A DNA stretch of 35,334 nucleotides from a virus (IMGVR_UViG_2778261179_000021:1-35334); one strand, 5' to 3'; shown: positions 2,991-20,943, counted from the stretch's first letter. The notes: generated from the letters alone by a model not told the origin. Translations and numbers: made by a program.

Positions 2991-3928
2991 TGGCAGTAAG
3001 AAAAGTTAGTACCGTACATTTCATCATGAAGCATTGCAGCATTGCGTTTCTGTTCTTCTTCCTCGTCTACCGCATCACTAGAAAAATGAGATTTGCCCTT
3101 AAAAGAACGAAGCAATTGCAGTGCAGCCATCGGATCACGCATCACATCGATTTTCACTTCTACTTCATCATTTGCGGCCTCATCAGCCGCATTTTCAACT
3201 ACTGCCACCGGAGCAACTTCTTTAGCTTTCAGTTCTTCAATTTCAGCTTTCTGGGCTTCGATAATCTGGTCTTTTTCTTCCAGTGCAGCTTTCAGTTCTG
3301 CGATCTGTGCTTCCAGTGCAGCAAAGCGATCTTCTACAACAGGAGAAACAGCATTAACCTGTGCTTCCAGTTCCAGAAATGCTTCGCAAGATTCAATACG
3401 TTCTTTCTCTTCACCTTCATAAGCAACCAGTTCTACAACTTCTTTTTCGGTAGCGTGGCTGTTAAAGAATACAGCAAAGTAAGGATTGCCGGATTTAGTG
3501 AAGTTCAGTTTAGCTTTTCCGGTAACTTCTTTACGACGACCGAAGGTGATCTGGCAATCAGCGGTATCCTGAAAATCCATGTTAGGAGCGGAAACGATAG
3601 CAGTATCACCAGCAATCACCAGGTGGAACAGTTCAGAAGAGTTCTTAACGGTAAAGGTAACGATGTGGTCTACTGCAACGTCTTTAGCAGGTTTAACGCG
3701 GTCGATTGCTTTACGAATGCCGTTAGGCAGTTTACCGTCAACACCAAAGCCAGCCGCGATCAGTGCTTCACGATGTGCTTTAAAGCCAGCGAAAGCGGAT
3801 TTCTGCTGCGCAAAGGAAACATGAGCAACAACTTTCGGCTGAATCTTCTTGTTTGCTTCGGTGCCAAATTTGATAACTGCTTTAGCGTTGGTTACTTCGT
3901 TAGTGAAAAAGTTAGCGGAAAATAACAT
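2987..3928 (-). CDS. hypothetical protein with central coiled coil and acidic C-terminal region (313 aa)
   Basis: ATG at 3928 with GGAG RBS; long ORF; heptad-like region ...FAALEAQIAELKAALEEKDQIIEAQKAEIEELKAKE...; second gene of a leftward operon downstream of LexA-like boxes. Confidence 0.7.
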   Translation of the reverse strand: MLFSANFFTNEVTNAKAVIKFGTEANKKIQPKVVAHVSFAQQKSAFAGFKAHREALIAAGFGVDGKLPNGIRKAIDRVKPAKDVAVDHIVTFTVKNSSELFHLVIAGDTAIVSAPNMDFQDTADCQITFGRRKEVTGKAKLNFTKSGNPYFAVFFNSHATEKEVVELVAYEGEEKERIESCEAFLELEAQVNAVSPVVEDRFAALEAQIAELKAALEEKDQIIEAQKAEIEELKAKEVAPVAVVENAADEAANDEVEVKIDVMRDPMAALQLLRSFKGKSHFSSDAVDEEEEQKRNAAMLHDEMYGTNFSYCQ

Positions 3929-4594: not shown

Positions 4595-4790
4595 CAAACA
4601 TGATCTAAGCGAGAGGTGACTATCAAAATTTTTGTTTGAAAATGGTAGATTAGGATTATCAACCTTTATAATCTATTATGGCACGGAGACCTTTTGATGA
4701 TTCCTTTTAAATCATTAGATTACGCCACTTTTTGGTGATTTTTTGGTTAAATAATATACAATAATTTTCTATCAAAATATTTGATGGGAA

Positions 4791-4986
4791 TTGCCCCCGA
4801 AATTCTGAATTTTTGCCCCCGAACAAAATCCCAAGATTCTACTATCCTATTTTTGCCCCTGAAACCTACTATTTTTGCCCCTGAAATTCTGGGAAACAGT
4901 GATTTTGCCCCTCATTTTTGCCCCTGAAATGCCAATAATTGCCCCTGAAAATCTAATTTTTGCCCCTGAAATTTTCCCCCGAAAAG
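4791..4986 (+). repeat. iteron array: about 9 direct copies of TTTTTGCCCCTGAAA
   Basis: Cores at about 4793, 4815, 4855, 4877, 4907 (degenerate), 4920, 4941, 4962, 4976 (degenerate), all in the same orientation, with spacings of mostly 21-22 bp or multiples; inside a 1.4-kb region lacking credible ORFs. Confidence 0.8.
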
Positions 4987-5138: not shown

Positions 5139-5507
5139 CGCGAAGCGCTAACCAATTACTTCTAGTAACAACTAATTTAAACTAGATGATACTAGATGGT
5201 CTTAGAAGGAATTAACTAGTTTGCTCGCTCGCTTCGCTCACTCTCAAACGTCTGCGACGCCACTGCGTGGCATCGAGAATCACTTTTGAAAGGATTTTCT
5301 TAGAAAGGGATTTAATACTAGTTACTAACTGATTCTAGTAAACGAACGAAGTGAGTAACAATCACTTTCTAGAAAGGTATTGGTATCCCTTCGGGATTGC
5401 AACCTTCGGTTGCTAAATTGCTTCCTGATTATTATTTCTCCAAAAGAAAGATTCTTATATTCTAAAGATACTTCTTCGTTTTGATGATGATTTAATCAAA
5501 ACTATGA

Positions 5508-7411: not shown

Positions 7412-7645
7412 TCAAAAACCTGTTGCTTCTACGATCTGACCATCACCGATCTGAACATAGAATTTAATGTCTAACTTCTTCATATTCTTATAGAATTGGG
7501 CGATTGAGATCCCATGTTCACTAAGAATCTGTTCTTTCGCTTCCTTACCACGATCCGCTGTATAGTAAGCGTAGGCAATATCAGCCATCTGTTCTTTAGT
7601 AAATCGTGCCGGACGACCGCGAGTAGCTTTAGTAGTCATAGTCAT
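7412..7645 (-). CDS. small HTH-module protein (77 aa), paralog of the 4043..4222 protein
   Basis: ATG at 7645 with GGAGAAA RBS (track ORF begins at an upstream GTG); TRGRPARFTKEQMADIA...HGISIAQFYKNMKKLDIKF resembles psq/resolvase-type HTH seen in phage DNA-binding proteins and some small terminases. Confidence 0.6.
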   Translation of the reverse strand: MTMTTKATRGRPARFTKEQMADIAYAYYTADRGKEAKEQILSEHGISIAQFYKNMKKLDIKFYVQIGDGQIVEATGF

Positions 7646-7674
7646 TTTCTCCAAATTAAAGTGAATGTTCACCT

Positions 7675-12406: not shown

Positions 12407-14410
12407 ATGCTTAAATTTCGCCGCGATCTTAACGGTTACGGTGGGGTTATTAATGAAGGGCATAACGATCAATACGAATTTGAAATTGCTTTCTCAAGTA
12501 CACAGCCTTATCAGCGCCAATTTTGGGATGAGCAAAATCAAGAAATGGTGGTATTAGATGAAATTCTGGTACATACACCGGAAGCGGTTGATCTGTCTCG
12601 TCTGAATAATAACGCTCCGTTGCTGTTCAATCACAATTTCGATAATCACATTGGTGTCGTTTGTAACGCTCGAATCGATGCGGATAACGTAGGTCGTGCT
12701 CTGGTTAAATTCTCCAAGCATGGGACTATGGCTAATGATATTCGTAACAAAGTCATTGAAGGTACGATGGAAAAAATATCGGTCGGCTATGACATTAAAG
12801 AGTATCACATCGATTACGCCAAAGGGCAATTGATTGTTACTAAGTGGGCACCCTATGAACTCTCATTTGTCACCGTTCCCGCAGACGATACGGTCGGTTT
12901 AAATCGCTCTCTAAATACTATCACAGTTAATTTGGAGGCTAAACGCGATATGACTAAAGAACAAATTGAAGAAATCAAAGAAGAACAAGAATCCGCTCAG
13001 GTTGAAGAAACTCCGGTAGAAGAAAATAAAGAATCGGAAGTAGAAGAAACTCAAGAGCGCCAAGTTGAAGAGAATAAAGAAGATGAAAATCTCGAAGACG
13101 GAAAAGACGCTGAACATCCTGAAAGTGTTGATGATGATAGTTCAACTGTTCGGGAAGCAGAAGAAGTAAAAGAAGAACGTGAAGCCGCTCCGGTTGAAGA
13201 AGAAAAAATCGAAGAAGTGGCTGAACGTTCCGAAGAAGACGAATTAGAAATTCGCGAGATCGCTCGCGAGCTAAATATTAACGACGAAGAATTAGAACGC
13301 GCATTGGCAGTTAAAGATATGACGCCGGAAGCATTCCGCACTAAGGCACTAAATAACATTACCAATGCTCAACGTATTAACGAACAACAAATTAAGGACT
13401 CTAAAATGGAAAAAACTTTTGACCTGAACAACGTAATTCGCTCTCTGGTAGATGGTGAAGCTCTGGGTGCTAACGAAGCCGAGTTTTCTGCAATGGCTGC
13501 TACTGCAACTATGCAGCGTGGTCGTGCTGCTCGCGGTGGCTCTGTATTCGTTCCGACTGCTGCTATGCGTGCTGCTGCTGATGGTAACACCAAAGCTACT
13601 CTGACCGCTGTAACCGACGAAAAACTGCTGAATGATTCCTATGTAGCGATGCTGATGCCGGAATCCGTTCTGGGTCGTCTGGGTGTGAAAGTCCTGTCTG
13701 GTCTGACTTCTCCGACTGCTATTCCGAAAATGACCGCTTCCAGCGTTGAATCTTTCGGCTTCGTTGATGAAAACGGTGCTGCACCGGAAGGTAAAGCTGA
13801 ATTTGCAAACGTGAAAATGGCTCCGAAAACTTTTGCTGGTGGCAACCCGATCAGCCGTCAGTCTCTGAAAACCGTTCCGGGCATCGCTACCCTGATCACT
13901 GATCACATTAACCAAGCTGTTCGTGTCAAACTGGAACAACTGATTCTGTCTGATAAAGAAAATGCTCGTGGTCCGGCTGGTGTGATTAAGCAACTGGTTG
14001 ATGCAAGCCGTGTTGAGAAGAAAGCTGCTTTCTCTTACAAAGACTTCCTGAAAGAAATTGCTAAACTGACCGACGCTGGCGTTCCTGCTCAGGCGATCAA
14101 GTTTGCGATGAGCGGTGCAACTGCTGCTGAACTGGAATCTACCCTGAAAGATAACGGTGTTTCCGGTTATATCATCGAAAACGGTAAACTGGCTGGTTAC
14201 GACGTAGTTACTTCTGGTGTTATTCCGGTAGACCACATCGTTCTGGGTGACTTCTCCGCTATTACCATCGGTGAATGGGGCGGTCTGGAACTGGACATTG
14301 ACGACACTACCTACCGCGCACAGTCCGCAATTGTTCCGCGTATCTGGGTAGATCTGGATTATGTAGTTACCCAGCCGGAAGCTCTGAAAGTTCTTCACGT
14401 CTCTGAATGA
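12407..14410 (+). CDS. fused prohead protease (HK97/S78-like) - acidic scaffold-like linker - major capsid protein
   Basis: 667 aa; N-terminal domain ends with the protease-family signature ...YELSFVTVPADD; about 130 residues of E/K-rich low-complexity linker; C-terminal about 330 aa consistent with an HK97-fold capsid protein; ends in TGA. Confidence 0.8.
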   Translation: MLKFRRDLNGYGGVINEGHNDQYEFEIAFSSTQPYQRQFWDEQNQEMVVLDEILVHTPEAVDLSRLNNNAPLLFNHNFDNHIGVVCNARIDADNVGRALVKFSKHGTMANDIRNKVIEGTMEKISVGYDIKEYHIDYAKGQLIVTKWAPYELSFVTVPADDTVGLNRSLNTITVNLEAKRDMTKEQIEEIKEEQESAQVEETPVEENKESEVEETQERQVEENKEDENLEDGKDAEHPESVDDDSSTVREAEEVKEEREAAPVEEEKIEEVAERSEEDELEIREIARELNINDEELERALAVKDMTPEAFRTKALNNITNAQRINEQQIKDSKMEKTFDLNNVIRSLVDGEALGANEAEFSAMAATATMQRGRAARGGSVFVPTAAMRAAADGNTKATLTAVTDEKLLNDSYVAMLMPESVLGRLGVKVLSGLTSPTAIPKMTASSVESFGFVDENGAAPEGKAEFANVKMAPKTFAGGNPISRQSLKTVPGIATLITDHINQAVRVKLEQLILSDKENARGPAGVIKQLVDASRVEKKAAFSYKDFLKEIAKLTDAGVPAQAIKFAMSGATAAELESTLKDNGVSGYIIENGKLAGYDVVTSGVIPVDHIVLGDFSAITIGEWGGLELDIDDTTYRAQSAIVPRIWVDLDYVVTQPEALKVLHVSE

Positions 14411-14542
14411 ACTAACGTAGAACCTTCTGAACCTTCCCCCGATTTGGGGGAAGAAAATCTGATTCCATCTCAGGAAGAAGAAGTTCAAGAGGTTACGGCG
14501 AAAGCCACAGTTAAAAAAGAACGTAAGACTAAAGCAAAATAA
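14411..14542 (+). other. in-frame 43-codon extension downstream of the capsid TGA stop (candidate readthrough product)
   Basis: No stop codons in the capsid frame from 14411 to TAA at 14540..14542; encodes TNVEPSEPSPDLGEENLIPSQEEEVQEVTAKATVKKERKTKAK; near-identical module follows the major tail gene. Confidence 0.5.
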
Positions 14543-14547
14543 TAATT

Positions 14548-14575
14548 AGCCCTGCCTAACGGTGGGGCTTTTTTG
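14548..14575 (+). terminator. intrinsic terminator after capsid gene and extension
   Basis: AGCCCTGCC-TAAC-GGTGGGGCT hairpin followed by TTTTTT. Confidence 0.7.
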
Positions 14576-14604
14576 TATGTAAATACTCCATAAAGGGGGT
14601 AACT

Positions 14605-15310: not shown

Positions 15311-16144
15311 ATGAATATTACACAAGATAACTTAGATATTTTCACTGGATCACATGTTGAAGTGTCGATCTCTAACCAGATAGACAATCAGGTCGACTTT
15401 TTCGATCCTAGCTTTAGTTCTATGGAGAACATCGCAGCATTCCCTACGCTAACCGAATCCACAGAGATAGAAACTCTGGAAGAGTACGATCAGGACGCTA
15501 CGGGGAAACTTGCTGGTTATCGTAGACTGGAACCGACAACACTCACATTAAACCGTGTTCTTGACGATGAACATCAAGCAATGTTGATGAAAGCGGTAGA
15601 GGATAAAACACCTTTACGCTTCCGTATGTTCTATGTTGTGAACTCTGGCTATAGTGCTGCTAACACAGGGTACTTTTGTATATTCGATGCTTACGTCACA
15701 TCACATAAAACCCGTGGTAGTGATAACAAAGCTGTAACACTGGAATTTAAACTTGAACCAGATGGCGGGATTCTGGCAAGGGGTATTGCTACCGAAGGCC
15801 GGATCTTACGTCAGGGTGATTTTGGTTTGGGTGCTGGTGTAAATCCATTCACGGGTCCAATTGATAGCGAGGCATTAGCCGGAAACCGTTTCGTAACTTA
15901 CAAGGGAACTGCTAGCGGTAATCCATATTCAACCGACACAGCATTAATTCACCTTCAAGCCAATGAGCATGGCGCATGGCAATTAACCTGTAATACTTCC
16001 GGCGCACCACGTTTACGCGTCCGAAATATTCAGGAAAACGGACGCTCTGAATGGATCAAGGTATATTCCACCAATGAGAAACCGACACCTAGCGAAATTG
16101 GCGCAGTAGCTAAGACTGACCGGATCGATTTCGGGGAGTATTGA
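15311..16144 (+). CDS. virion structural protein (possible tail terminator or tail-tube-like protein with C-terminal beta-rich domain)
   Basis: AAGGGG RBS; 277 aa ORF within the late operon; function from position and composition only. Confidence 0.5.
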   Translation: MNITQDNLDIFTGSHVEVSISNQIDNQVDFFDPSFSSMENIAAFPTLTESTEIETLEEYDQDATGKLAGYRRLEPTTLTLNRVLDDEHQAMLMKAVEDKTPLRFRMFYVVNSGYSAANTGYFCIFDAYVTSHKTRGSDNKAVTLEFKLEPDGGILARGIATEGRILRQGDFGLGAGVNPFTGPIDSEALAGNRFVTYKGTASGNPYSTDTALIHLQANEHGAWQLTCNTSGAPRLRVRNIQENGRSEWIKVYSTNEKPTPSEIGAVAKTDRIDFGEY

Positions 16145-16219: not shown

Positions 16220-19200
16220 ATGCAGTCGATCCAATTTAAACGCACACAGACGGCTGGTAAAAAACCAACGCCGGAACAATTATCACAGGGTGAGATCGCC
16301 TTACAACTGGCGGACCATGTGATTTACACCAAAGACAAAAATAATAATGTAGTTCAAATTAGTGTTTCTCCAGAAAAACACGCTGAACTGAATACGAAAG
16401 TAGACAATAACAAAACTAGCACTGACCGTGTTATTGCAGCAAATAAGAAAGAAGCTGCTGATAATCTGGCTAGTGCTAAAGCTGAACTTAATCAGACTAT
16501 CACTTCTACCCGTGATACCCTCAATGCTTCAATCACTGCTGGCGATACCGCAGCCAACAAACGAATTGATGCTTTGACTACCACAGTAGGTAACAATAAA
16601 ACCGAAGCGGCTAACGCTCTGGCGGCTGCTAAGACTGAACTGAATCAGACTATTACTTCAACCCGCGATACTATCAACGCGACAATTAACAAGAACAAGA
16701 CAGATATTAATGCGCGAGTTGATCAGACGAATACCAACGTTACCAACTTAACGAATACTGTCGCAGCAAATAAATCAGCAATAGAAAAGACGGTAGCGGA
16801 TAATAAGAAAGATGCGGACACGAAGATCACCAATCTTACTAGTACGGTCTCTGCGAATAAGACAGCCATTGAAAGAACTGTTGCAAATAACAAGGCCAGT
16901 GCCGATGCCGCAATTGCCGCAGCTAATCAGCGAATTGATTCGATTGAAGGTAGTGCCGATGCTGCTTACATCAAGAAGAATACCAACACTTACCATCACG
17001 GGTATTTGTTAAGCAAGACCGCTAACTATTTTGATGATGCTGGCGCACGTAACCTTGATTATTTTGGTGCGTTTCGTCCGAACAATGCCGAAGGTTGGGG
17101 TAACTTAATCCTTAACATTCCTCATTCTGGCGGTAAAGCCCACGGTCGCGGTTTTGAGTTCCACTATGGGTCTAGCTCATCTCAAGTTAAAACCTATGGC
17201 TTTGATAAAGATGGTAATAAGCGATTCAGCTACCGCATGTATCATGAAGGTGATAAGCCGACTCCTACTGAATTGGGTGTGTATAGTAAAGCCGAAGTTG
17301 ATCAGATGTTCACTAAACCCGTTCATATGTCAACTGGTGAAAATGCGGCTGGTTACTTTAAACTGGCAACGGCAACAATTCCACAAGGGGGTCGAGGCTT
17401 TTTCATCCGTATTTTCGGTGGAAATGGTTATAACGTTAATAGTCCTGATCAGTGTGATATTGTAGAAATTGTTATCCGTTCCGGTAATGGAAATCCGAAA
17501 GGTGTAAACGTTGTTGCTTATCGTCGTAATACTAATAACGAGTTTGAAACCTTTGCGGTTAATACTTCGGGTGATAACTATGATATCTATGTGAAATATC
17601 GCAAATACACCGATAAAGTTACTGTAGAGTACGGTAAAAGTGCTGATGTGACTTTAAATGTGTATGATACACCTGAATTAACTCTCGTTAAGCCGTCTAC
17701 TGGTGTTAACGAAGGTCGTGTTATTACCTTGTTTAATACTGAAAATAAACGCGGTACTCTGTCCTTTGATAATAACTCACAAGCAACTTACGATATTGTG
17801 AGTTTGAGCGCCGCACAGGACCGTAACAAAAAATATCTGCGTAAATTCCGTAGTCAAGCGGTAGAGACCATCTGGCATGAAGTTGTTAACGGTAGTTCAT
17901 ATCGTTTAGCTACTGGTGTTACCGATTCTACTGATGTTTTTCAGATTGATTCTACTGGCTCTGTTGCTGGTCCATATAAAGGCAACGTGACTACTGGACG
18001 TATGGAATTAAACGGTGGTAGTAATGCATTAACTTTGCGTCGTCCTGCTGGACAATCTAACCATATTACATTCCAAGATAACCGTAGTGGTAATATTACC
18101 CGTCAAGGCTGGATCGGTTATGGTGACGCTGATACTAACGCATTGCAGATATATAGCGATGTAGGAAGTAACAAATTTGCATTAGAAACTAACGGTCAGA
18201 TCTCTCTGAATGTTGGCGCAACAAAAATTGTTTACTCTAACGGACAATATTATTCCGCTAACTCAGATGCATTCCGTATGATTTACGGTAATTACGGTGC
18301 ATTCTGGCGTAATGATGGCACTAAAGTATATTTGTTATCTACTGCTGAAAATGATCGTTTTGGTGGCTGGAACGGCAACCGTCCGTTCATTTACGATTTA
18401 ACTAACGGTAAAGTTACTTTAGGTGGTGATGGTAACGAAGGTGCATTAGTTCTTGAAAGAGATAGCCGTGCTGCTCGCTTTAGTAATAACGTATTCTTAG
18501 AGAAAGGTTTGCTTACGTTCTCTGCTGGTGGAAATCAGTCGATGGATTCTTTCACGATTAACCATTGGGGGAATAGTAATGCCGATCGATATAACGTTTT
18601 GCAATTCCAGGACACTAGCGGAACTCACTTTACCACTGAACGTAACGGATCTGGCGGTTTGCTTGCTCATTTCCGAGGGGATTTAACTACCGAAGGAAAA
18701 TTAACGTGGGGTAAGGGTACAGCTACTTCTAGTTTCAATATTCGTGCATGGGGCGCTGATGCTCGTAAACAAGTATTTGAATGTGCTGATGAAAGCGGTT
18801 GGCATTGGTATACCCAACGTCCGGGCGGTCCGGGTACTACGGCAATTGAGTTTGCTATCAACGGTACTGTTAAGCCTCAAGCAATTCACACTGGCGGCAA
18901 TATTCTTTTGAACGGTGCTGATATTGAATTTCGTCGCACTGGTAATAAGCATATCTGGTTTAGAGATCCAACTGGATTAGAACTAGGTTTGATGTATTCC
19001 GATGATGCTGGTGTTATTCGCTTCCGTGGTCAGAAACAAGCCCAGACGTGGAAACTTGCGGATAAGATGATCCAGTTGGAATCTGGTACTGTAACCGGAG
19101 GCGGTAATGGCCTGATTCGTGGTGAAGTTGCTGGCGGTAGTTGGGCTAGCTGGCGTGACCGTGCTGCTGGCCTTATGGTTGGGTGTCCTCGATCAACCGA

Positions 19201-19738
19201 TTCCGCTCATAACATCTGGAAAGCGACACATTGGGGTAAATATCACATTGCAGCAATGGGTGTGCATGTTCCTAGTGGTACTATCGGTAACGCTCTTGTG
19301 CGTCTCCATGTTCATGATACTAACTTTGACTTTAACGCTGCTGGTGATTTTACCGCAGGTCGCAACGGTAGCTTTAACGATGTTTACATTCGCTCTGACT
19401 CTCGTCTGAAAATTAACAAGGAAGAATTACAGGACGGCGCATTAGAGAAAGTAAACTCCCTGAAAGTCTACACCTACGATAAAGTTAAATCTCTTTCCGA
19501 TGACACAGTGATTAAACGCGAAGTAGGCATTATTGCTCAGGATCTGGAAAAAGTATTGCCGGAAGCGGTAGGTATTCAATCCACAGAAGATCCAGAACAT
19601 CCAGAAGCAATCAAGACTATTTCTAACTCTGCTGTCAATGCTTTAATCATCAAGGCTATGCAGGAAATGGACGCCAAATATAAAGCGCAGATCGAAGCAT
19701 TACATAAAGAGATTGCCGAACTGAAAGCAACTAAATAA
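16220..19738 (+). CDS. long tail fibre with C-terminal intramolecular chaperone (peptidase S74-like) domain
   Basis: 1172 aa; N-terminal about 51-aa tandem repeats (…AKAELNQTITSTRDT…); C-terminal about 115 aa …IRSDSRLKINKEEL…VGIIAQDLEKVLPEAV…NALIIKAMQEMDAKYKAQIEALHKEIAELK match the self-cleaving chaperone domain of endosialidase/T5-type L-shaped fibres. Confidence 0.8.
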   Translation: MQSIQFKRTQTAGKKPTPEQLSQGEIALQLADHVIYTKDKNNNVVQISVSPEKHAELNTKVDNNKTSTDRVIAANKKEAADNLASAKAELNQTITSTRDTLNASITAGDTAANKRIDALTTTVGNNKTEAANALAAAKTELNQTITSTRDTINATINKNKTDINARVDQTNTNVTNLTNTVAANKSAIEKTVADNKKDADTKITNLTSTVSANKTAIERTVANNKASADAAIAAANQRIDSIEGSADAAYIKKNTNTYHHGYLLSKTANYFDDAGARNLDYFGAFRPNNAEGWGNLILNIPHSGGKAHGRGFEFHYGSSSSQVKTYGFDKDGNKRFSYRMYHEGDKPTPTELGVYSKAEVDQMFTKPVHMSTGENAAGYFKLATATIPQGGRGFFIRIFGGNGYNVNSPDQCDIVEIVIRSGNGNPKGVNVVAYRRNTNNEFETFAVNTSGDNYDIYVKYRKYTDKVTVEYGKSADVTLNVYDTPELTLVKPSTGVNEGRVITLFNTENKRGTLSFDNNSQATYDIVSLSAAQDRNKKYLRKFRSQAVETIWHEVVNGSSYRLATGVTDSTDVFQIDSTGSVAGPYKGNVTTGRMELNGGSNALTLRRPAGQSNHITFQDNRSGNITRQGWIGYGDADTNALQIYSDVGSNKFALETNGQISLNVGATKIVYSNGQYYSANSDAFRMIYGNYGAFWRNDGTKVYLLSTAENDRFGGWNGNRPFIYDLTNGKVTLGGDGNEGALVLERDSRAARFSNNVFLEKGLLTFSAGGNQSMDSFTINHWGNSNADRYNVLQFQDTSGTHFTTERNGSGGLLAHFRGDLTTEGKLTWGKGTATSSFNIRAWGADARKQVFECADESGWHWYTQRPGGPGTTAIEFAINGTVKPQAIHTGGNILLNGADIEFRRTGNKHIWFRDPTGLELGLMYSDDAGVIRFRGQKQAQTWKLADKMIQLESGTVTGGGNGLIRGEVAGGSWASWRDRAAGLMVGCPRSTDSAHNIWKATHWGKYHIAAMGVHVPSGTIGNALVRLHVHDTNFDFNAAGDFTAGRNGSFNDVYIRSDSRLKINKEELQDGALEKVNSLKVYTYDKVKSLSDDTVIKREVGIIAQDLEKVLPEAVGIQSTEDPEHPEAIKTISNSAVNALIIKAMQEMDAKYKAQIEALHKEIAELKATK
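16430..16930 (+). repeat. in-frame tandem repeats (about 153-nt unit) within the tail fibre shaft
   Basis: For example GCTAAAGCTGAACTTAATCAGACTATCACTTC at about 16475 versus GCTAAGACTGAACTGAATCAGACTATTACTTC at about 16628. Confidence 0.6.
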
Positions 19739-19794
19739 TAAAAGTCGGGGGACTAGTTCCCCCGTAATAACAATTTTAATTAAGGGGTAATTCT

Positions 19795-20268
19795 ATGTCT
19801 CAGCAATTTAAAGATATTTTTACTGGTGGTCTGGTAAGTCTGTTCTATCACGCCGACACCACTAATACCGCTCTCGACCACGAAAGCTACGAAGAAATTA
19901 AAGAGTGTGCTGGTTTTCCTGAAACTGGTATCGAGCGCGGTACTGTAGAAGTTAAATCCTTCTCTTCTCAGTATAACCGTAAACTGGTAGGTAAACTGAA
20001 CGTTCCTGATCTGACTCTGACCGTTAACTACATCCCAGGTGATGCGGTACATGAAAAACTGATCAAAGCTGCCGAAGACGGTACTCGTATTCAGATTAAA
20101 GTAGAATATTACGTTGACGCAGCAAAACAGACTGGTATTCGCACCGCTTTCAACGGCTTCATTTCTAAAGTTGCTATGAACGGTGGCGATGAAGAAGTTG
20201 TAACCAAAGAGTTTACCTTCGCGGTGGATGGTGCTCCGCTGAAACAGCAAATCTTCACTGCCGGATGA
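19795..20268 (+). CDS. putative major tail (tube) protein
   Basis: AAGGGG RBS; 157 aa; sits in the V position upstream of G/GT and tape measure; ends in TGA followed by the same extension module as the capsid gene. Confidence 0.5.
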   Translation: MSQQFKDIFTGGLVSLFYHADTTNTALDHESYEEIKECAGFPETGIERGTVEVKSFSSQYNRKLVGKLNVPDLTLTVNYIPGDAVHEKLIKAAEDGTRIQIKVEYYVDAAKQTGIRTAFNGFISKVAMNGGDEEVVTKEFTFAVDGAPLKQQIFTAG

Positions 20269-20388
20269 ACTAACGAAGAACTTCCCGAACCGGAACCACA
20301 GCCGGAACATGAAGCGGTGGTGATTCCAGAAGTAGAAGAAGTTACGGCGAAAGCCACAGCTAAACGAAGCCGCAAGGCTAAAGATTAA
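20269..20388 (+). other. in-frame 39-codon extension downstream of the major tail TGA stop (candidate readthrough product)
   Basis: Open in the tail-gene frame to TAA at 20386..20388; encodes TNEELPEPEPQPEHEAVVIPEVEEVTAKATAKRSRKAKD, sharing EEV-TAKAT-K--RK-K with the capsid extension. Confidence 0.5.
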
Positions 20389-20393
20389 TTATA

Positions 20394-20422
20394 AGCCCTG
20401 CCTTAATGGTGGGGCTTTTTTA
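20394..20422 (+). terminator. intrinsic terminator after major tail gene and extension
   Basis: AGCCCTGCC-TTAAT-GGTGGGGCT hairpin followed by TTTTTT; near-identical to the terminator at 14548..14575. Confidence 0.7.
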
Positions 20423-20436
20423 TTGGAGTAATCAAA

Positions 20437-20943
20437 ATGGCGAATGTCGTTAATAAGCCTGGCTGGGTCGGGTCATCTGCTGTTTCTGTAACTGGTCAAC
20501 GATGGATGAGCGCAGCAATGAACGCATTAAAGGTTAGTCGCCCAGCTAACATGAGTGCGATGTGTGGTCGTGGTATGGATACGGTTGTAGCTACTGCTGC
20601 GTGGTCTACTTCATTGGGTAATAACTGGGGTGTAACTGCTTCAAACTATCCAGTAACTGACATGCGCGGTAAAGGATCTATGGAGAACCCCGAAAACGTG
20701 GGCGTAGGGCGTCTGATTGGCGTTATCGTTGGTCAATTCAATGGCGGTACTCCTACTATGGCTGTATATCTCCAGAACGGTAGAGCGGGGAATATAACCG
20801 TTAATTTGGGTGGTGCTGCTGTCACTGTTCTTTATAACAGTATGCAAAGTGGTTTTCATTACTATTGGTTAAGCAATCCTCCGGCTGCTTTCCTTACCAA
20901 CATTAAGAAGACTGGCACTAAGCAGACTTTGAAAATCTCTTAA
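20437..20943 (+). CDS. hypothetical virion-associated protein (beta-rich, 168 aa)
   Basis: GGAG RBS; ORF between the major tail gene and the G chaperone; no recognisable motif. Confidence 0.45.
   Translation: MANVVNKPGWVGSSAVSVTGQRWMSAAMNALKVSRPANMSAMCGRGMDTVVATAAWSTSLGNNWGVTASNYPVTDMRGKGSMENPENVGVGRLIGVIVGQFNGGTPTMAVYLQNGRAGNITVNLGGAAVTVLYNSMQSGFHYYWLSNPPAAFLTNIKKTGTKQTLKIS

Follow-up and report, generated by a model that had tools for sequence, protein, structure and literature searches.

A shared 3' cassette behind the capsid and tail-tube genes of an Escherichia coli prophage family points to programmed UGA readthrough

Introduction

The question raised by the locus described here is whether some ribosomes pass the UGA stop codons of two major structural genes of a double-stranded DNA (dsDNA) phage and thereby append a short basic tail to its capsid and tail-tube proteins. 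The locus lies in IMGVR_UViG_2778261179_000021:1-35334, a viral stretch of 35,334 nucleotides (nt) that was analysed as a whole and is referred to as the window. An initial inspection of this DNA, made without database searches (the sequence-only reading), had noted that the major capsid gene ends in TGA followed by an in-frame lysine-rich extension, that the major tail gene shows the same arrangement, and that programmed stop-codon readthrough might account for both. The comparative data presented below support this proposal, although they do not prove it, and make it probable that a portable cassette carried by both genes mediates functional UGA readthrough.

Programmed readthrough is textbook knowledge in RNA viruses and retroviruses. 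To our knowledge, it is essentially limited in bacteria to phage Q-beta and to selenocysteine incorporation, while tailed DNA phages extend their proteins by frameshifting. If real, readthrough in the family described here would therefore represent a new recoding route in phage biology, with one portable cassette serving both the capsid and the tube gene.

The capsid and tail-tube genes share a 3' cassette

The major capsid gene (12407..14407, on the plus strand, like all cassette features below) encodes a 667-residue fusion of a prohead protease, a scaffold and an HK97-type capsid protein, as indicated by matches to the Pfam families Peptidase_S78 (E 1.7e-10) and Phage_capsid (E 7e-25) and to the PHROG family phrog_617, major head protein (E 7e-90). 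It ends at a TGA codon (14408..14410), the proposed leaky stop, which is followed by A. As described in the sequence-only reading, the same frame then stays open for 43 codons (14411..14539; TNVEPSEPSPDLGEENLIPSQEEEVQEVTAKATVKKERKTKAK), specifying an acidic proline-rich linker and a basic tail, before it is closed by tandem TAA TAA stops (14540..14545) and an intrinsic terminator (14548..14575) with a 9-bp GC-rich stem (14548-14569) and a run of six T residues (14570-14575). Readthrough would generate the stop-spanning peptide VLHVSE-X-TNVEPSEPSPDLGEENLIPSQEEEVQEVTAK, with X denoting the residue inserted at the UGA. The first 10 nt of the extension (ACTAACGTAG, 14411..14420) contain stops in both other frames and form a spacer between the stop codon and a long-range helix, P1, whose 5' arm (AACCTTCTGAAC, 14421..14432) forms 11 of 12 possible pairs with its 3' arm (GTTCAAGAGGTT, 14483..14494). 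P1 encloses two inner hairpins, one at 14433..14453 (CTTCCCCC GATTT GGGGGAAG) and one at 14458..14481 (TCT..TTCC / GGAA..AGA). Its 3' arm runs into a conserved 19-nt block (GTTACGGCGAAAGCCACAG, 14492..14510), which codes for V-T-A-K-A-T and contains a small hairpin, P2 (GGC-GAAA-GCC, 14497-14506).

The second copy follows the tail-tube gene (19795..20265), which encodes a 157-residue protein of the lambda gpV N-domain type. Its assignment is based on a match to phrog_158 (E 3e-21) that is confined to the tube-domain part; in Pfam, the protein reaches 28.3 bits against Phage_TTP_11 (cut-off 28.4 bits) and also remains slightly under the cut-off for PF16460 and PF16461. RefSeq relatives label the homologue "tail tube protein", and the gene is positioned directly ahead of chaperone-like genes and the tape measure gene. 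Here, the proposed leaky TGA (20266..20268), again followed by A, and a 10-nt spacer (ACTAACGAAG, 20269..20278) precede a shorter P1, in which AACTTC (20279..20284) pairs with GAAGTT (20338..20343) in a register that is ambiguous because GAAG is present three times in the 3' region. The 19-nt block with P2 (20346-20355) lies at 20341..20359, and a further hairpin, P3 (AGCC-GCAA-GGCT, 20368..20379), is located within the codons of the basic tail. The extension comprises 39 codons (20269..20385), is closed by TAA TTA TAA (20386..20394) and leads into an intrinsic terminator (20393..20423), in agreement with the recurrence described in the sequence-only reading for the tail gene at 20266. The predicted stop-spanning peptide is QQIFTAG-X-TNEELPEPEPQPEHEAVVIPEVEEVTAK.

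The two copies are alike from the stop codon through the end of the terminator, and the sequences upstream of it are unrelated. Global nucleotide identity was uninformative under the aligner settings used, as unrelated genes already score 62-65%. The stop-proximal block ATGAACTAACG, which the sequence-only reading had correctly recognized as shared but given as 10 nt, comprises 11 nt and has two exact copies in the window (mean of 0.66 matches with up to one mismatch in shuffled sequences). The 19-nt block that it had also pointed out occurs exactly twice, compared with zero occurrences in 100 shuffles. Among 32 plausible genes of the window, 27 end in TAA, one in TAG and only four in TGA, two of which are the capsid and tube genes; the other two (7412-7672, minus strand, and 15311-16144) lack an extended in-frame open reading frame (ORF). 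A reassignment of TGA as in the tryptophan or glycine codes was rejected, given that all large genes are intact under table 11 and that there are only these four TGA stops, and no suppressor tRNA was found within the window. Antisense ORFs at 13349-14488, 19780-20310 and 20109-20375 (all minus strand) have no PHROG or Pfam matches and were dismissed as shadow ORFs.

An invariant TGA and an open frame accompany the extension

The window is a member of a prophage family of ~35 kb that occurs in 55 of 5426 complete E. coli genomes (e.g. ETEC4085, NZ_CP122634, where the prophage lies at ~2.74-2.77 Mb) and includes many IMG/VR prophage contigs; nucleotide and peptide searches of cultured phages (INPHARED) returned no match. 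In RefSeq, both genes end at the TGA, and the gap before the terminator is unannotated. Minor virion proteins of this type, if they are made, would escape standard annotation, as all database entries of the family end at the TGA.

All 31 intact related loci have TGA as the capsid stop codon, with A as the next base, and 28, 42, 43, 44 or 45 open codons precede TAA TAA and the terminator. The tube gene exists in two main allele types: type A (>90% identical to the window) always combines TGA with an extension of 36, 39 or 41 codons, and type B (~58% identical) ends in TAA and has no extension. Each of the 44 occurrences of the 19-nt block in IMG/VR is preceded, in the same frame, by a capsid or tube gene that ends in TGA. 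Eleven further variants came from a metagenome scan; they, too, have TGA and an open frame, and they include a 33-codon form that arose by a 27-nt deletion. Of the metagenomic matches, 34 have no terminator. Eight matches to the 19-nt block in species-representative genomes of unrelated taxa, individually unchecked, were set aside as presumed chance hits. Altogether, 52 distinct modules (41 plus 11) were obtained, with TGA-A in 52/52, an open frame 0 in 52/52 and lengths of 28-45 codons that differ only by multiples of three.

In E. coli, the module occupies three contexts, namely two capsid alleles with 38.6% protein identity and the type-A tube allele. In the second capsid allele, too, the stop codon marks the point from which the sequence resembles the other modules. 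The beginning of the 28-codon capsid variant is like that of the tail variant, a sign that head and tail genes exchange a single shared cassette by recombination. The arrangement also extends to another genus: in a Providencia prophage, a capsid gene whose product is 43% identical ends in TGA followed by ACTAACGAAG and has 25 in-frame codons (TNEELPEEEPLPVATEKSTKRRKSK), TAG and a terminator. The frame and the stop codon are thus conserved in related phages, which was the comparative check named in the sequence-only reading.

Relatives without the extension, by contrast, end in TAA. This applies to the capsid and tube genes of Salmonella prophages, to Hafnia-like contigs, to phage DCP80, to the E. 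coli tube alleles that lack the extension (58% and 73% identity) and to 32 of 33 distant capsid homologues. Together with the TAA bias of the window itself, this distribution ties TGA, the leakiest stop codon, to the presence of the extension.

The extension carries a moderate coding signature in frame 0

Frame 0 is free of stop codons in all variants, with one to seven stops per variant in frames +1 and +2. In E. coli and Providencia, the other two frames are closed within one to three codons of the TGA; frameshifting was therefore discarded as the source of the extension in these genera. Counting Providencia, extensions of 25, 28, 33, 36, 39, 41, 42, 43, 44 and 45 codons were seen, which differ by about ten insertion or deletion events, all of them multiples of three (3, 3, 3, 6, 15, 27 and 48 nt and others). 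The loop of the neighbouring terminator, by contrast, has undergone 1- and 2-nt indels. Substitutions point in the same direction, with a synonymous excess in frame 0 for the capsid copies (omega ~0.56, p=0.05) and the tube copies (omega 0.39, p=0.004) and no significant deviation in frames 1 and 2 (omega 0.7-1.16). These data amount to a moderate protein-coding substitution signature in frame 0 and uphold the earlier claim of frame-preserving divergence.

Certain properties of the coding evidence weigh against a readthrough product. An open frame 0 is found in 10-24% of dinucleotide-shuffled sequences, so that openness of a single copy is weak evidence; the persistence of the frame adds only modest evidence because no more than ~4% of point substitutions would create a stop; and the extension shares its frame with the upstream gene by construction, since the TGA is itself part of the module. 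The significance of the open frame thus rests on the comparative data. Variable sites in the capsid copies, moreover, show no clear concentration at third codon positions, and constraint on the extension peptide is weak. The shuffling result, and the fact that the copies are related and hence not independent, would fit a recently duplicated intergenic spacer that hitch-hiked along and happens to be open in one frame. We regard this explanation as very improbable, since it would have to account at once for the invariant TGA, the restriction of indels to multiples of three, the frame-specific synonymous excess, the covariation described below and the conservation in another genus.

Even less credence can be given to the idea that the extension is translated as an independent small peptide through reinitiation or from an internal start. 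It draws on the capsid gene of Edwardsiella tarda (see below), where the homologous ORF starts at a GTG that overlaps the stop codon (GTGA), an arrangement typical of translational coupling. However, neither an in-frame start codon nor a Shine-Dalgarno sequence is conserved in the E. coli and Providencia modules, NTG codons overlapping their TGA are out of frame and run into stops within two to seven codons, and conservation of the frame, including the restriction to indels of 3n, begins with the first codon past the TGA.

The peptide has a recurrent layout, in which an acidic proline-rich linker is followed by a V-(T/K)-A-K-A-T-(A/V)-K core and a basic end in several versions (KKERKTKAK, KKQRKTKE, KRSRKAKD and KK(V/A)GRPPKAK). 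The last of these resembles an AT-hook (PF02178), reaching 14.7 bits (E 0.027) at a cut-off of 17.4 bits, a similarity that we consider a lead only; the variants found in the window gave no match. The only apparently fused database protein (P0001, 198 residues, from L081 41-637), which matches a query composed of the tube protein, a tryptophan residue and the extension, proved to be a database artefact: its DNA has TGA at the junction, which the gene caller read as Trp, probably by applying code 4 to a short metagenome contig.

A covarying RNA helix lies ten nucleotides past the stop codon

The RNA of the extension is predicted to fold more stably than shuffled controls, with z-scores ranging from -1.65 to -4.8. 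In every class of module, the 5' arm of P1 begins exactly 10 nt past the UGA, a spacing also seen in Providencia, and its 3' arm finishes at the GUU that opens the 19-nt block, so that the helix closes off a variable segment that forms hairpins of its own. The geometry is thus a 10-nt spacer, a stem of 6-12 bp and an enclosed segment of 4-50 nt. The arms vary by class yet stay complementary through compensatory changes: they read AAUUGCCGGAA / UUCCGGUAGUU in the short capsid form, AACC.UCUG / CAGA.GGUU in the long capsid form, AACCUU.UGAAC / GUUCA.GAGGUU in the capsid copy of the window, AACAACC / GGUUGUU and AACUUC / GAAGUU in two tail forms, and AGUUGCCGGAAG / CUUCCGGUAGCU in Providencia. 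Across all 26 distinct sequences in an anchored alignment, the share of paired cells is 81%, compared with 25-44% when the partners are slid against each other. With one sequence per class, the values are 86.7% and 23-44%, respectively, and nine of 15 pairs have changed on both sides (shuffle mean 5.3), with none of 500 shuffles reaching the observed values. This covariation is visible only between classes in the anchored alignment; RNAalifold detected almost none within a single class because the sequences are too similar. Of the enclosed elements, inner hairpin 1 is unchanged in the long capsid variants and missing from the 28-codon variant, and the 27-nt deletion of the 33-codon variant (L159) takes out inner hairpin 2 cleanly, leaving P1 and the frame intact.

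P2 (GGC-GAAA-GCC) covaries as well: it is replaced in Providencia by GGA-GAAA-UCC, with changes on both sides of the stem that preserve the pairing and replace two residues of the peptide. P3, present in many variants, reads AGCC-GCAA-GGCU in the tail copies, CGAC-GCAA-GUCG at the same place in Providencia, and GGYGG..CCRCC, with covariation of U-A to C-G, in capsid forms encoding GRPP. The conserved post-stop context emphasized by the sequence-only reading is therefore real, but the putative signal is wider, comprising the 10-nt spacer, the covarying long-range helix and small GNRA hairpins.

As a separate observation on the GRPP variants (L005, L006, L008, L015 and others), their (V/A)GRPP codons form the hairpin GGUGG..CCACC or GGCGG..CCGCC, in which the V/A change at a second codon position covaries with a synonymous change of proline between CCA and CCG. 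Protein and RNA constraints are interleaved in this element.

No Rfam family matches the region at gathering score, and sub-threshold matches cover the terminator only. Selenocysteine insertion was ruled out as a mechanism: searches of Rfam at gathering score or with E values up to 10 detected no selenocysteine insertion sequence (SECIS) element, and the hairpin sequences are not conserved between classes.

Nucleotide conservation and covariation reveal selection on the RNA itself, which could alone explain much of the conservation and thus also counts against a peptide product. The stretch from the stop codon to the terminator (~130 nt) might accordingly be a structured 3' untranslated region without a functional peptide, translated by accident, whose role could be to stabilise the abundant capsid and tube mRNAs, to tune termination or to give rise to a small RNA seeded by the 19-nt block. 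We judge this explanation, the main alternative to readthrough, unlikely. It is favoured by the covariation of P1 and P2, the GNRA loops and strongly negative fold z-scores, by a nucleotide conservation of the module far above that of the flanking genes, by the lack of synonymous variation in the 19-nt block within E. coli, by the weak constraint on the peptide, and by the terminator with U-tail that invariably closes the module, a feature reminiscent of Hfq-binding small RNAs. What it leaves unexplained is the invariant TGA in a genome, and among extension-less relatives, that favour TAA; the way in which similarity sets in precisely with the stop codon behind three or four genes that are unrelated to each other; the ~10 indels of 3n only, next to a terminator loop that tolerates 1- and 2-nt changes; the openness and synonymous excess in frame 0 alone; and the tandem stops as well as the constitutive tail of an Edwardsiella tube protein. 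The absence of an Rfam family match does not help it either.

A model for the function of the cassette

The order of elements, namely UGA-A, a 10-nt spacer, P1, the GNRA hairpins P2 and P3, strong stops and an intrinsic terminator, suggests the following model of programmed UGA readthrough. Most ribosomes would terminate at the UGA and release the normal capsid or tube protein. A minority, for which we infer a share of ~1-10%, would insert an amino acid at the UGA, most likely tryptophan by means of near-cognate tRNA-Trp, as in Q-beta. These ribosomes would add 28-45 codons specifying the acidic proline-rich linker and the Lys/Arg-rich tail, AT-hook-like in some variants, and then halt at the tandem TAA codons. 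As a result, each head and each tail would have a few subunits that bear a flexible cationic tether. In lambda gpV, the tube domain comprises residues 1-156, and the immunoglobulin-like (Ig-like) domain that follows lies outside the tube (PMC8718954). The tube extension, which starts at residue 158, is thus expected on the exterior of the tail, because it begins where gpV carries its outward-facing Ig-like domain. As to its function, we can only guess that the cationic tail adheres weakly, by electrostatic attraction, to nucleic acid or to polyanionic polymers of the cell surface.

In this model, readthrough would exceed background levels. P1 may stimulate it, or may only shield a rarely translated, ribosome-poor RNA from nucleases or Rho.

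Beyond the limits of the coding signature, some considerations speak against readthrough at these genes. No RNA structure is known to stimulate readthrough other than selenocysteine insertion on bacterial ribosomes. With 10 nt, the spacer is among the longer ones known. UGA is followed by A in this family, whereas C is the base with the closest association to leaky UGA codons (PMC7026636).

Readthrough could also be real but primarily regulatory, with a ribosome that has passed the UGA unwinding P1-P3 and, once positioned at the TAA, blocking formation of the terminator hairpin and thereby setting downstream transcription. The frequency of readthrough would then determine the fraction of transcripts that reach the genes for low-copy connectors, chaperones and the tape measure protein. 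In E. coli and Providencia, the stop codon of the extension is only 2-6 nt away from the terminator stem, and the cassette is placed behind precisely those two genes whose products, given the established stoichiometry of the virion, must outnumber those of the downstream genes 30- to 100-fold; the weak constraint on the peptide sequence would also be accommodated. Nevertheless, we consider a primarily regulatory role improbable. It would depend on the leading ribosome and RNA polymerase being tightly coupled, the main stop codon of extension-less relatives is likewise close to a terminator, and the basic C-terminal tail is kept as a protein feature that also occurs constitutively.

It is conceivable, if doubtful at present, that the cassette represents the first natural case of non-selenocysteine readthrough stimulated by RNA structure on bacterial ribosomes, in the form of a mobile recoding module for head and tail genes that is perhaps coupled to a terminator. 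Such coupling, if it exists, would set the ratio of the major structural proteins to the low-copy downstream products.

Relatives show constitutive tails and a deviating Edwardsiella capsid gene

In Edwardsiella tarda, a tube protein of 175 residues (P0024) carries a tail (..NVIPEAVAAKEK) and ends in ..FTPDAPLATYHMNVIPEAVAAKEK, with no preceding stop codon. This end resembles ..VVIPEVEEVTAKATAK.., and the BLASTP alignment continues past the stop position and includes part of the extension. Relatives from Salmonella, Hafnia-like contigs and Providencia likewise have short Lys/Arg-rich tails at the C-terminus as a constitutive feature.

Two Hafnia-like contigs provide a related side observation. 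They differ five codons from the capsid end, with GAA in one (L087, ~5140-5190; ..PAGAEAKSKD*) and TAA in the other (L088, ~4785-4815; ..PAGV*AKSKD*), so that either a natural nonsense change has dropped the short basic tail or the UAA is tolerated.

The sequence-only reading had named homologues carrying the block out of frame as a possible refutation of readthrough. The block is in frame throughout E. coli and Providencia, but a single capsid gene of Edwardsiella tarda (L082 2750-2870) departs from this pattern and thereby counts against readthrough: it ends in TGA, but its version of the block (..VIPTGREEVSVKSGRKPKTDN*) has to be read in the -1 frame. This case amounts to one sequence, because L082 and the second instance, L115, do not differ. 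Upstream, no more than nine codons are open in the -1 frame. A -1 frameshift site could be made up of GUA_AAG, a 7-nt spacer and a GAUACC-N15-GGUAUC hairpin; from the sequence, -1 frameshifting, reinitiation at the overlapping GTG and decay appear equally possible. According to a review, C-terminal extensions of phage proteins appear to be indifferent to the mode by which they are generated (PMC5009743).

A further side observation concerns three other loci (L117, L118 and L124, ~3360-3480), whose capsids are ~40% identical to that of Edwardsiella. Here, TAA is followed by an in-frame lysine-rich hexamer repeat, EKQKQKRKRKLK (AAAGCN repeats), which enters the terminator without a stop codon and is 12 nt shorter in one copy. 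The repeat could be a related phenomenon or simply an A-rich spacer.

Comparison with known recoding systems

The closest precedent is phage Q-beta, in which readthrough of the coat-gene UGA was reportedly described by Weiner and Weber in 1973. As in the present model, its coat gene ends in a leaky UGA decoded by tRNA-Trp, and a few percent of extended minor coat protein, A1, enter the virion (see PMC7026636). Q-beta is, however, a single-stranded RNA phage with a folded extension of ~196 residues that is needed for infection and with no known conserved 3' helix, whereas the family described here comprises dsDNA temperate siphoviruses with a short, probably disordered putative tail of 28-45 residues and a covarying RNA 3' of the stop codon, and its cassette is found on the tail-tube gene as well.

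Among dsDNA phages, Listeria PSA, A118 and A500 and Lactobacillus A2, as well as T7/T3 (10B) and SPP1 (gp17.1*), similarly use recoding at the 3' end of the major capsid and major tail genes to produce minor forms with a C-terminal extension (PMC5009743, PMC8718954). Unlike in the present family, they rely on +1 or -1 frameshifting, what they append is mostly a folded domain of the Ig-like or FN3 type, and the head extension and the tail extension do not represent one module, whereas here a shared module lies in frame behind a UGA. The Ig-like domain of lambda gpV resembles the tube extension in being a C-terminal appendage at the end of a ~156-residue tube domain that is located outside the tube (PMC8718954), but it is constitutive, folded and present on every subunit, while the extension proposed here would be short, probably disordered and limited to a minority of subunits. 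Full-text literature searches did not turn up any dsDNA phage for which readthrough at its capsid and tail genes has been reported, in line with the suspicion of the sequence-only reading that such a shared head and tail module had not been described, and the word "readthrough" is absent from a review of major tail proteins (PMC8718954).

With regard to the RNA, the cassette is most reminiscent of eukaryotic readthrough stimulators. In alphaviruses, tobra-, furo- and pecluviruses and the Drosophila kelch gene, a spacer of 7-12 nt is followed by a stem of ~10-14 bp with a long, partly structured loop (Firth et al. 2011, PMC3159437). The alphavirus stem-loop raised UGA readthrough up to 10-fold in experiments, and the elements of the plant viruses and kelch were inferred; support for these stem-loops includes compensatory changes and enhanced nucleotide conservation 3' of the stop codon (PMC3159437). 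The cassette likewise combines UGA, a spacer, a stem and a large structured loop, so that by analogy its helix may stimulate readthrough. These precedents nevertheless operate on eukaryotic ribosomes and eRF1, with none known for bacterial ribosomes and release factor 2 (RF2). The presence of a covarying helix at the distance from UGA seen in eukaryotic viruses raises the question of whether mRNA structure can antagonise RF2-mediated termination. Bacterial SECIS elements share with the cassette an RNA hairpin closely 3' of a UGA within coding sequence, but the hairpins and loops of the cassette vary between classes, its first pair is 10 nt away from the stop codon, and it lacks the SelB-binding loop features of SECIS. 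Being short (~170 nt) and self-contained, the cassette could be used for low-copy peptide display on phage heads and tails.

Neighbouring sequences and genes

Directly past the capsid terminator, the sequence TTTTTTGT(A/T)TGTAAATACT (14570-14590) is kept in E. coli, Salmonella and Providencia (also in L084 and L089), while the terminator stems vary between these copies. It could serve the head-tail connector genes as a promoter or regulatory site.

The TGA-terminated gene at 15311-16144 encodes a protein of 277 residues, the first ~150 of which form a second tail-tube-like domain (phrog_158, E 1e-8) with ~30% identity to the 157-residue tube protein, followed by ~120 residues of no assigned function. 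Its position, with the head-tail connector genes on one side and the tail fibre gene on the other, is conserved across the family, and the protein could act as a collar, as a fibre anchor or in a terminator-like role.

The lambda-like siphovirus tail operon of the window further contains a T4-type long tail fibre gene (16220-19738; 1172 residues, Gp34_trimer and Peptidase_S74) and a gene for a gp38-like adhesin (20437-20943). The latter follows the tube gene and its cassette in the window, whereas it precedes the tube gene in ETEC4085 (L033) and Edwardsiella (L082).

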